A DNA stretch of 64,000 nt. Source: an uncultured Caldithrix sp. (lineage in GTDB: Bacteria > Calditrichota > Calditrichia > RBG-13-44-9). This document shows, one piece after another, positions 7,769 through 10,025 of this stretch (its first letter is position 1; each line of letters starts with the position of its first letter). The DNA lies in contig CAYWTB010000004.1 in NCBI GenBank assembly GCA_964461135.1, forward strand, positions 53,385 to 117,384, in the 5' to 3' direction. The translations under genes were made by a program, and so were the position numbers. Under the pieces are notes generated by a model. It did not search any database. It saw only the letters and a list, made by a program, of their open reading frames with translations, and had not been told where the DNA came from.

Positions 7769-9136
7769 ATGAACTGCGGCCTTAAAAATGAAGATGGATT
7801 TTCTCTTATTTTTACCATGATAATATCCGTAATTCTTTCGTCCACTATTCTTGCAGTATTTCTTTACCTGTCTGTACACCAGCATCTCATTTACCGGAAA
7901 GCCAATTTTCTTAAAGCCAAATATTGTGCCCGGGGTGGATTAAACCTTAAAATTATTGAGCTGGAAAATGAAAATTCCATACAGGACTGGACGCTTTCTA
8001 TTAACCAGTGTATTTACCTGTCCCCCCGTGACAGTTGCATGGTAAGCACCAAACGCTGGGGAGGATTTCTTCACATGTTGTCCAAGTCCTGTAAAAAAGA
8101 TCAATCTTATTCTCTTCGGTCTATTTGGGGAATCGTATCCACAGAATTTTACAATCCAGCCATTGTAGTAAATCCGTTTTCGGAAACTTTGGTGATATCA
8201 GGGGAGACTCAAATTTGGGGAGACGTCTATACTGGACTGTCCGGTTTGAGGAAAGGATCTTTATCCGGTCTGGCTTATCGCGGGAACAGACTGGTTTTTG
8301 GAAAAATTATAAAATCAGAAAAAGATAACCGCCCTCAAATAGACAGACTATATATTAAACAGATTTTTCATGACTGGCGGAAGTTTTTCACCTTACCGGC
8401 ACAGAAATTTTCCGATTTTATCCATGAAAATTGTGATGTGATTAATCCTGCATCACCGGAAAACGCAAACATCATAATTCTCTCTGTGGACAATGAAGAA
8501 ATAAACAGGAGAAACTGGCATCTTAAAGGTCCTGCCGTTTTAATAGCAAAAGAAAAATTGAATATACAATGTTCTCTCCGGATCGAGAATTTTGTGCAGA
8601 TATTATGCGAAAAATCGATCACGCTGTCAGGTAATTCCATTCTTTCAGATGTGATTCTGTACTCCCCGGACTCAATCAGGATAAAAAAAACAGGGAGCTT
8701 CGAAGGCCAGATTTTTTCTGAAAAAAGTATCGGTTTCGATCAGAATGTTCGGATAGATCTTCCCAGTCTATTTCTGGTTTATTCCGAATTTAATAATGGA
8801 TATATTAATATAAAACCTCATGCAGCCGTTAATGGCTGGTTCTATTATACCTCTCCGCATCGAGCAGAGGCGCCCGGAGCGGTTCAGGCTAACATTCTGA
8901 TTTCCGAGAATTCGACTGTAACCGGTCTGGTCTATTGTGATGATTTTACGGCAATTTCCGGAACAGTGAATGGAATCATTATTACCGATCGCTTTTTGCT
9001 GGAGGATCCTCCCTCGAAATACATCAACTGGATTAAGGACGGGCATATAAACCGGGATAAACTCCCGAAAAAATTTACTCTCCCTGTTTTTATGAAAAAT
9101 ACAAATTTCTCCATGTTACCTTTGAAATTCCTATGA
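7769..9136 (+). CDS. Large prepilin-like minor pseudopilin, 455 aa. GspK/PilX-like class with no Glu at position +5.
   Basis: N-terminus MNCGLKNEDG|FSLIFTMIISVILSSTILAVFLYL: a short charged leader, a Gly, then a hydrophobic helix. The body contains beta-strand repeats such as ISGETQIWGDVYTG, LSGNSILSDVILYS and ISGTVNGIIITD. Its stop overlaps the next start (ATGA). Confidence 0.5.
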   Translation: MNCGLKNEDGFSLIFTMIISVILSSTILAVFLYLSVHQHLIYRKANFLKAKYCARGGLNLKIIELENENSIQDWTLSINQCIYLSPRDSCMVSTKRWGGFLHMLSKSCKKDQSYSLRSIWGIVSTEFYNPAIVVNPFSETLVISGETQIWGDVYTGLSGLRKGSLSGLAYRGNRLVFGKIIKSEKDNRPQIDRLYIKQIFHDWRKFFTLPAQKFSDFIHENCDVINPASPENANIIILSVDNEEINRRNWHLKGPAVLIAKEKLNIQCSLRIENFVQILCEKSITLSGNSILSDVILYSPDSIRIKKTGSFEGQIFSEKSIGFDQNVRIDLPSLFLVYSEFNNGYINIKPHAAVNGWFYYTSPHRAEAPGAVQANILISENSTVTGLVYCDDFTAISGTVNGIIITDRFLLEDPPSKYINWIKDGHINRDKLPKKFTLPVFMKNTNFSMLPLKFL

Positions 9137-9495
9137 AAAAAAATCTGGAAAAAGACGAAGGATACACGCTCATAGAAGTATTGACTGCTTTCAGCCTATT
9201 TTTTCTTCTGATTTTTCCCCTTCATCAATTGATCAGTTTTTTCTACTGCGATTCCCACAATTTGGATATCCTGAATGCGATAAACCTGGCTGAAAGTGAA
9301 ATGGAGCTGGCTGTTTTAAAGAACAATTTTTCTGAGATTAGCTATACCACAGAAATCAATAGAAAAAAATATAAGATCCTCCGGCAAATAAAGACGGACC
9401 GGAATCTGGTTTTGGTGGAGGTGAAGATATATTCACTGCGAAAAAACAGGGTAATAATACATTTCATAACCTGCTGTAGTCGAAAGGACGATTAA
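9133..9495 (+). CDS. Type IV pilin-like minor pseudopilin, 120 aa (GspI/PilV-like), with a class III signal peptide.
   Basis: MKKNLEKDEG|YTLIEVLTAFSLFFLLIF: Gly at -1, Tyr at +1 and Glu at +5 form the canonical prepilin peptidase motif. Confidence 0.65.
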   Translation: MKKNLEKDEGYTLIEVLTAFSLFFLLIFPLHQLISFFYCDSHNLDILNAINLAESEMELAVLKNNFSEISYTTEINRKKYKILRQIKTDRNLVLVEVKIYSLRKNRVIIHFITCCSRKDD

Positions 9496-9497
9496 AC

Positions 9498-10025
9498 ATT
9501 AAATCTGTCCTAATTAATAAAAACGGTTATACTGCCATTGAGTTAATGATCGCTTTACAGCTTTCCTTACTGCTGATAAGCATGGTTTATTTGAGCTATC
9601 TGTTTGCATCCTCGCTTATGATAAAATGGCAAAGGAAAGTTGAAATCGAAAATCAACTGTCGGTCATATCAAGAGACATGTCGGTTAAAATTAATTCCAT
9701 CCGTGAATTATTAAACGCAGGGCCCCATGATATTACGGCAATAAATAATAGCGGGGATACACTGAATATCTCCCTGCATCCCGTCTTAAAATTAAACAGA
9801 CATACATTTGGAAATGAAAACATTAAATATAAGGAGGGGAACTTCCGCTATTATATTAAAAGTCAATCTGATGGCAATGATATTACCATAACGGAAGGTC
9901 CGAATTTAACTCATAAATACCTCGCTATCGGTGTGGAATTCAATTTAAAATTTATCATATTCAACAGGATGTATCAGCTGAAATCTACCGTTTATCTTCA
10001 AATGCTAAATAATATTTCCTTCTAA
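9498..10025 (+). CDS. Type IV pilin-like minor pseudopilin (GspJ/PilW-like). Probable non-AUG start (AUU at 9498 or 9513); the ATG-only ORF is 9546..10025.
   Basis: In frame upstream of the ATG at 9546, and with no ATG/GTG/TTG in between, the sequence encodes (I)KSVLINKNG|YTAIELMIALQLSLLLISMVYL. This is a complete prepilin leader plus the G/YTAIE motif. An AAAGGA lies 9 nt before the ATT at 9498. Confidence 0.55.
   Translation: MKSVLINKNGYTAIELMIALQLSLLLISMVYLSYLFASSLMIKWQRKVEIENQLSVISRDMSVKINSIRELLNAGPHDITAINNSGDTLNISLHPVLKLNRHTFGNENIKYKEGNFRYYIKSQSDGNDITITEGPNLTHKYLAIGVEFNLKFIIFNRMYQLKSTVYLQMLNNISF

Follow-up and report, generated by a model that had tools for sequence, protein, structure and literature searches.

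A minor-pilin gene trio divergent from an RHS-family gene in Calditrichota: a probable type IV filament tip module detached from its machine

In a 64,000-nt stretch of DNA from an uncultured Caldithrix sp. (assembly GCA_964461135.1, contig CAYWTB010000004.1; hereinafter the window), three consecutive genes, designated pil1, pil2 and pil3, are arranged divergently from a giant RHS-family gene. An earlier description made from the sequence alone (hereinafter the original prediction) took them for a stand-alone K-I-J-like minor pseudopilin operon. We consider it probable, at roughly three chances in four, that the trio encodes the minor pilins that form the tip, or prime the assembly, of a type IV filament machine encoded elsewhere, and that it came to lie next to the RHS gene by rearrangement, with no functional dependence needed. 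Such filament machines occur in Calditrichota and other FCB-group bacteria; the genome of a cultivated relative, Caldithrix abyssi, is annotated with a "Pili IV cluster" (Cabys_2567–2584; PMC5317091). On this account, an apparently orphan pseudopilin operon is explained as a detached tip module.

All three open reading frames (ORFs) have the class III (prepilin) N-terminus that the original prediction described, and so do all their homologues. Specifically, a short polar or basic leader ends in Gly-1 and is followed by a hydrophobic helix of ~20 residues. The N-terminus of pil1 is MNCGLKNEDG/FSLIFTMIISVIL (the slash marks the cleavage site), in which Gly10 ends the leader and Phe occupies position +5; the protein is large and lacks Glu+5, as had been noted. 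The N-terminus of pil2 is MKKNLEKDEG/YTLIEVL, with Glu+5 present. A Shine-Dalgarno-like site, AAGGTG, is located 7 nt before the ATG of pil1, and the predicted ATGA overlap of pil1 and pil2 is found at 9133–9136, indicating translational coupling. In a six-frame scan, the only two canonical G-x4-E motifs in the window are those of the trio. The trio sequence is identical in an independent Logan assembly (locus L001; homologous loci are designated by L numbers).

Table 1. Features of the pilin region: coordinates in the window, strand and description
Feature	Coordinates	Strand	Description
pil1	7769..9136	+	455 aa, cap minor pilin of GspK/PilX/ComZ class (predicted)
pil2	9133..9495	+	120 aa, canonical leader G/YTLIEVL with Glu+5, presumed GspI/PilV-class partner
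pil3	9498..10025	+	175 aa, GspJ/PilW-class minor pilin (predicted) if ATT 9498 is the start
Divergent intergenic region RHS/pil1	7246..7768	.	523 bp
RHS-family polymorphic toxin gene, partial	1..7245	-	start at 7245, at least 2414 aa, runs off the window; listed as genomic context only

The prepilin motif of pil3, IKSVLINKNG/YTAIELM, is in frame and located 5' of the first ATG. Translation from that ATG (9546–10025) gives 159 aa without leader or Glu+5, and no ATG, GTG or TTG precedes the leader (window 9498–9548). The length of about 170 aa given in the original prediction therefore needs the ATT at 9498 as start, from which 175 aa are obtained, and does not agree with the first ATG. This ATT is located 3 bases after the pil2 stop, has AAGGA 9 nt upstream, and aligns with the ATG start of the L003 homologue of pil3 (MKEFKFSESG/YTTLELM). 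ATT can serve as a start codon when a good Shine-Dalgarno site precedes it. As read from the sequence, pil3 would have either a rare AUU start or a lost start codon. Gene callers place the start of pil3 at ATG 9546 and so lose the leader and Glu+5.

Relatives of the trio were taken from a one-genome-per-species collection and are metagenome-assembled genomes (MAGs) of Calditrichaceae, Caldithrix and Calditrichia. Homologues of pil2 and pil3 come after pil1 at every locus, with G/[YF][TS]xxE kept and with Glu+5 present in both; pil2 is conserved in nine loci. Among 105 aligned relatives of pil1, Gly-1 is found in 104/104, the motif is E-x-G-S-A-L-[IV]-x-V-L, and the residue at +5 is T, A, S, L, F or Y, Glu not being among the six commonest. 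This pattern across loci is that expected of a cap and two assembling subunits: lacking Glu+5, pil1 would therefore be the cap, with no subunit above it.

The pil1 family is large and divergent. An exhaustive profile search gave 2469 clusters (50% identity) at E ≤ 1e-3 and 428 at E ≤ 1e-30, nearly all matched over the full length of ~450 aa; a word-indexed search gave just 5–6 relatives, even with a 105-sequence profile. The family is unnamed, and neither Pfam nor NCBIfam has a model for it. A scan of metagenome contigs (A1 query) returned a copy of L002 only. One trio (L006, WAPZ01000181.1) lies on a 2.7-kb contig deposited in a Candidatus Heimdallarchaeota MAG; this contig probably comes from a Calditrichota-like bacterium and was binned wrongly.

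The AlphaFold2 model of pil1, made from the 105-sequence alignment, has a predicted local distance difference test score of 94.6 and a predicted template modelling (TM) score of 0.91. It contains a helix (12–67), a four-stranded sheet (78–123), a beta-solenoid (~132–428) and a last strand (449–454). In the model, a long N-terminal helix lies on an antiparallel sheet, giving a pilin fold of GspK topology without Glu+5, and an ice-binding-protein-like beta-solenoid is carried on the same chain. Foldseek returned ComZ as the top match and ice-binding proteins next, with GspK matching the pilin domain. The predicted order of sheet, solenoid and final strand would fit a ComZ-type arrangement. The pil3 model has the GspJ fold, with the Thermus pilin TTHA1219 among its four strong matches. 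At the level of predicted fold, therefore, the models support pil1 as K-like and pil3 as J-like. Taken with the gene context in relatives, the K-I-J reading of the original prediction is largely right, the I-class member being presumed.

The best solved-structure match of pil1, Thermus thermophilus ComZ (PDB 6QVI), which with PilA2 forms the tip of the competence pilus, is likewise a large pilin-like protein without canonical motif. It consists of a GspK-like pilin fold and a solenoid nearest to ice-binding protein, and was argued to fit only the pilus tip (PMC6561018). ComZ is encoded beside small type IV pilins (GspI/J-like), one of which, TTHA1219, shares the GspJ-like fold matched by pil3. 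The two systems differ in phylum and gene order, and crystallised ComZ chains have 498–518 residues vs 455 aa in pil1. The same architecture is reported in all cyanobacterial PilX cap pilins, in which a triangular ice-binding-protein-like solenoid is proposed to replace PilY1 as tip plug (bioRxiv 10.64898/2026.02.12.705559, 2026). Like pil1, these caps lack Glu5, carry a bulky solenoid and co-occur with small partner pilins, the likeness being one of architecture. Unlike the cyanobacterial PilX/PilV sets, the Calditrichota trio is a fixed operon of three genes, one of them of J class. The pil1 family is a further case of a known type, the ComZ/PilX solenoid cap, and no new category. The novelty is modest: a fold-level label (ComZ/PilX-like solenoid cap pilin with GspJ-like partner) for a large, unannotated family, the occurrence in Calditrichota of a solenoid-capped tip known from Thermus and cyanobacteria, and a recurrent, putative association with RHS genes.

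Consistent with the original prediction, the window contains no pilus ATPase, secretin or prepilin peptidase. Pfam searches of its large ORFs found no secretin, T2SSE ATPase, T2SSF platform or A24 peptidase, the genes being housekeeping and regulatory only; tblastn of the window with the machinery proteins of relatives found no machine gene, the sole match being a sigma-54 activator. The window carries its own sigma-54 activator (22118–23482) paired with a histidine kinase, the two genes spanning 22118–25624.

In several relatives, the trio and the machine are neighbours. At L008, L009 and L010, whose pil1 is 38% identical, a complete set of machinery genes lies divergent from the trio in the order A24 prepilin peptidase, a secretin of 628 aa, a PilM-N-like protein of 477 aa, proteins of 177 and 163 aa, a fragment of a sigma-54 activator, T2SSF platform, 136-aa pilin (EDG/FSLTEIL), 169-aa lipoprotein and MshEN+T2SSE ATPase. 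At L007, a secretin, a 444-aa protein, PilO and a 158-aa protein are located upstream of the trio and divergent from it, and an A24 peptidase is located just downstream; at L011, a secretin is upstream and divergent. L004 and L019 share one 45,966-nt contig: a secretin search placed the machine on the contig that carries the L004 trio. The order there is second RHS/DUF6443 gene, ATPase, 173-aa protein, pilin, platform, sigma-54 activator, 160-aa protein, PilO, PilN, secretin, A24 peptidase, type IX secretion system (T9SS)-tail protein, IS110 transposase, 346-aa gene, RHS gene, 547-aa gene and trio. Machine parts in relatives also include PilO and a PilP-sized protein, and the pilin has 136–139 aa. 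The secretin has relatives in other FCB-group phyla.

A separated arrangement is seen in assembly ERZ25039603. Trio locus L016, which has the same gene order as the window (RHS, trio, CNNM, CBM48-amylase, POT, Cys/Met PLP enzyme, DUF4405), is on contig_31458 (359 kb), and a machine is on contig_16159 (209 kb). The machine cluster of contig_16159 lacks both trio and A24 peptidase, its secretin is 61% identical to that of L008, and the tetranucleotide composition of the contig correlates with L016 (r = 0.92) and with the window (r = 0.96). Minor-pilin sets encoded apart from the machine are also known from cyanobacteria (bioRxiv 10.64898/2026.02.12.705559). Across at least seven detached loci the trios are intact and keep their motifs at 30–50% identity; we therefore infer purifying selection and a working machine elsewhere.

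The type of the machine is less well defined than its parts. The L019 ATPase scores 580 bits with the PilB model (cutoff 675) and 576 with GspE (cutoff 630), and thus marginally best with PilB; GspF gives 304 (cutoff 424), and the secretin scores best with PilQ (221, cutoff 284; GspD 187, cutoff 351). The PilMN-like, PilO-like and 160-aa proteins of L019 have no equivalog matches, and no GspC, GspL or GspM was found there; Pfam searches of the relatives' clusters gave PilN and weak PilO matches. Because the PilB and GspE models score equally and all scores are below cutoff, the machine is not assignable to a type II secretion system (T2SS) or a type IVa pilus. The original prediction of a tip-complex set of one of these two systems thus holds for the minor-pilin tip set and not for the system type.

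The GspK-GspI-GspJ complex of enterotoxigenic Escherichia coli (PDB 3CI0) resembles the trio in having a large cap without Glu+5, a ~120-aa subunit and a J subunit of ~170–190 aa, and the machine of relatives is T2SS-like in its one ATPase, PilM-N (GspL-like) fusion, N0-domain secretin and prepilin peptidase. Unlike T2SS GspK, pil1 is predicted to have a beta-solenoid in place of the alpha-helical insertion domain; the order of the trio is K-I-J, on the strand opposite to the machine, and no GspH-like fourth minor pilin was found. The trio shares priming and tip-complex logic with the PilVWX set of type IVa pili, unlike which it has three minor pilins only, no FimU-like adaptor, no PilY1 and no PilT in the cluster (none in the machine clusters fetched). 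Two candidates for a fourth pilin were rejected. The 169–173-aa gene beside the major pilin encodes a lipoprotein, with a signal peptide followed by Cys, and a 103-aa ORF upstream in L003 lacks a pilin motif and is without counterpart in the window.

The machine operon of relatives carries a sigma-54 activator between the PilP-sized and platform genes (full-length in L019, 14332–15684; truncated in L008, 3935–4375; also in L020, 14780–15673). For this reason, a sigma-54 promoter was sought upstream of the trio; none was found in 11 loci.

These arrangements suggest the following history. Trio and machine would ancestrally have been divergent neighbours. An RHS-containing cassette would then have entered between them, giving the state seen in L004/L019, and in the window lineage the machine would have moved to another locus while the RHS gene stayed beside the trio, followed by vertical inheritance. 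For assembly, we infer a mechanism from the GspK-GspI-GspJ, PilVWX and ComZ-PilA2 paradigms. Prepilin peptidase would cut each trio protein after the conserved Gly; small pil2 and pil3, the latter with its predicted GspJ fold, both having Glu+5, would pair in the inner membrane; pil1 would cap the pair, so that nothing could be added above; and the major pilin would polymerise underneath the cap complex. The pil1 solenoid would end at the distal tip, where it might act as adhesin or receptor in the manner of Thermus ComZ and cyanobacterial PilX.

Several points weigh against a detached tip module. First, no hidden Markov model of GspI, GspJ, GspK or pilins in Pfam or NCBIfam reaches its curated threshold with any trio protein; the original prediction had proposed such models as a check, and they do not bear out its K-I-J labels. 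The best matches of pil2 are sub-threshold, to ComGE and ComGF (~23 bits); with TIGR01707 (gspI) it gives 11.9 bits (E 0.24, cutoff 44.35) over the N-terminal 25 residues only. N_methyl (PF07963)/TIGR02532, short models that are weak on divergent sequences, give 15.4 bits for pil2 (cutoff 21.2) and 13.0 for pil3 (cutoff 16.3), and pil1 matches neither. There is no GspK/T2SSK match of pil1 in Pfam or NCBIfam at E up to 10, and pil3 has just N-terminal ComGE and TIGR02532 matches, both below cutoff. Profiles of the three proteins against PDB sequences gave nothing useful (no match for pil1, none beyond the helix for pil3). The single match of pil1, to a bactofilin model, looks spurious and is due to its beta-helix. 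Of the three class labels in the original prediction, GspK/PilX-like for the first gene agrees with the GspK-like pilin domain of the fold model; GspJ/PilW-like for the third agrees in predicted fold and not in sequence-model membership; and GspI/PilV-like for the second agrees in size, motif and position and not with the GspI model.

Second, pil2 is presumed I-like by its size, Glu+5 and position. Third, ComZ and pil1 have no detectable sequence similarity and superpose poorly, with Foldseek TM-scores of 0.19–0.24 (~0.2 globally); the domain arrangement of pil1 therefore differs from that of ComZ or is poorly captured. Fourth, the presence of a machine in the genome of the window is judged from a syntenic relative, in whose assembly contig_16159 and contig_31458 are not proven to come from one organism. 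Fifth, the lack of a canonical start before the pil3 leader could mean reduced expression or incipient decay. Finally, RHS-family genes occur close to trio or machine in no fewer than three different genomic settings, more than one accident easily explains.

The RHS gene itself agrees with the original prediction of a giant gene divergent from the trio. The N-terminus of its protein, MEKIKLLFYGFIIISF, is a Sec-type signal peptide. At aa ~2141–2219 the protein has an Rhs core (TIGR03696, 57.8 bits, cutoff 32.5), which precedes a variable C-terminal domain running off the window; this core is the sole family match, with no match to a Pfam family. Identity of the N-terminus is 76% with the neighbour in L003 and 61% with that in L013, and the C-terminal half is 34–56% identical to the RHS_repeat-positive RHS protein of L004. 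Compared with the latter, the window protein has a ~90-aa insertion just before the core (aa ~2017–2108). Its N-terminus also has a GDLNL-IPLLELPG motif common to other RHS neighbours of the trio system.

Adjacency to RHS genes recurs. An RHS gene is directly divergent from the trio in the window and at L003, L013, L016 and L005/L012. Specifically, the window, L003 and L013 have orthologous RHS genes upstream and CNNM downstream of the trio, and at L005 and L012 the upstream gene is RHS-like and diverged, with the same CNNM, pullulanase and POT genes downstream. At L004, a 547-aa gene and a 1922-aa RHS gene are upstream of the trio; at L017, three other genes, OmpH among them, separate the trio from RHS-family genes ~3–4 kb upstream. 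In L019, the second RHS/DUF6443 gene is 340 bp downstream of the ATPase gene and co-directional with it. In a neighbour-joining tree, which is weakly resolved, the RHS-linked loci are not monophyletic. The CNNM, amylase and POT genes are conserved equally well; descent therefore explains most of the RHS adjacency.

The recurrence raises the possibility of functional coupling, on which the filament would export the Sec-delivered RHS protein through the outer membrane in a T2SS-like manner or the tip complex would display it, as PilVWX holds PilY1, for contact-dependent delivery. Trio and machine repeatedly have RHS-family neighbours, in varied arrangements: between the two in L004/L019, after the ATPase gene, and near the trio in L017. 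The signal peptide of the window RHS protein implies that an outer-membrane route is needed, and the PilM-N fusion, one ATPase and lack of PilT in the cluster are in keeping with a secretion pseudopilus. Weighing against such a route, an RHS shell that exceeds 250 kDa when folded is large for passage through a secretin channel. RHS/YD proteins are reported to lie beside type IV pili, and to influence them, in Bdellovibrio and Myxococcus (PMC3818213). Bdellovibrio Bd0109, an RHS-repeat gene next to type IV pilus genes for which a pilus link was proposed, encodes a small periplasmic YD-repeat protein implicated in controlling how the pilus is extruded and retracted; the window neighbour differs in being a giant polymorphic toxin, in which an Rhs core is combined with a variable C-terminal domain.

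Functional coupling is nevertheless unlikely. Three relatives (L008–L010) have the complete machine and the trio with no RHS gene in the fetched flanks, an absence of linkage in relatives that the original prediction had itself listed among its grounds for refutation; the same holds for L007 and L011, with trio and part of the machine, and no RHS gene neighbours the L020 machine. In L019, the RHS cassette comes together with an IS110 transposase. Moreover, unrelated genes are conserved equally well beside the trio, and between the window and L016 the RHS proteins are 27% identical vs 79% for CNNM, which gives the look of hotspot turnover and not of a co-evolving partner. The original prediction had raised the question of toxin export or surface display by the pseudopilus: the adjacency is real and recurs, and export or display is neither shown nor needed. 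In a further variant, the tip complex, uncoupled from the machine, would be co-inherited and perhaps co-regulated through the intergenic region with a Sec-exported RHS toxin, which it would present or export. This is very improbable; if true, it would amount to pilus-borne contact-dependent toxin delivery, distinct from the type VI secretion, contact-dependent inhibition and toxin complex (Tc) routes known for RHS proteins.

The matches to Thermus also bring up a competence pilus, in which the trio would be a ComZ-PilA2-like DNA receptor at the tip for transformation, and not part of an adhesion, motility or secretion filament. In addition to ComZ as the best structural match of pil1 and TTHA1219 as a match of pil3, pil2 has its best, sub-threshold, matches to two minor pilins of competence systems, ComGE and ComGF, and the single pilin of the machine has faint to weak ComP_DUS matches in Pfam. 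All these sequence matches are below cutoff and mostly confined to the N-terminal helix, and no comEA, comEC or dprA is seen in any fetched locus. Cyanobacterial solenoid PilX proteins serve both competence and motility pili (bioRxiv 10.64898/2026.02.12.705559), so the fold does not specify function. We consider a transformation-specific role improbable.

That the trio is an orphan remnant, left decaying or co-opted for a non-pilus role after loss of the machine at rearrangement, fits the absence of machinery genes within 64 kb, the lost ATG start of pil3 and the low GC of the locus (0.38, lower than the rest of the window), and is highly improbable given that the three ORFs are intact in the window, L003, L005, L012, L013 and L016 with Gly-1, Glu+5 and core residues kept at 30–50% identity, that ATT with its Shine-Dalgarno site is usable, and that the assembly of syntenic L016 also holds a trio-less machine. 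Among the secretin clusters listed in a search, none is on a contig of 121,020 nt, the length of the contig that carries pil1, which is weak negative evidence in favour of a remnant.

The GC fraction is 0.38–0.40 over the RHS gene and trio (window 2001–10000) vs 0.41–0.49 in the rest of the window, in line with a region that is variable or was exchanged recently, or with surface genes that evolve fast. In the divergent intergenic region, a 16-nt perfect palindrome, TGCAAAAATTTTTGCA, is located at 7434–7449; it is kept in L003 and partly in L013, and in the alignment with these two loci it adjoins a second conserved block, CATATTTGCGTATACAT. The palindrome is a possible operator common to the RHS gene and pil1. 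Sigma-70-like and terminator-like sites in this region are not above shuffled expectation.

Three further observations concern the flanks of trio and machine. In L019 (1–21887), two co-oriented RHS-family genes flank the entire machine, with the IS110 transposase inside the flanked segment. Excision or relocation of the machine by RHS-RHS recombination was considered and set aside, the two genes being too diverged (25–34% identity) to judge. In L004, a CIS_tube (contractile injection system tube) cluster (12352–17373) is directly downstream of the trio, which thus lies between the RHS cassette and a contractile injection system locus. Large Disaggr_repeat/CBM96 proteins are encoded at the outer edge of both RHS-linked and machine-linked loci (L016, 942–5138; L008, 1–70), and the L016 protein also holds an Rhs-core-like segment; such proteins may be another recurring giant secreted neighbour.

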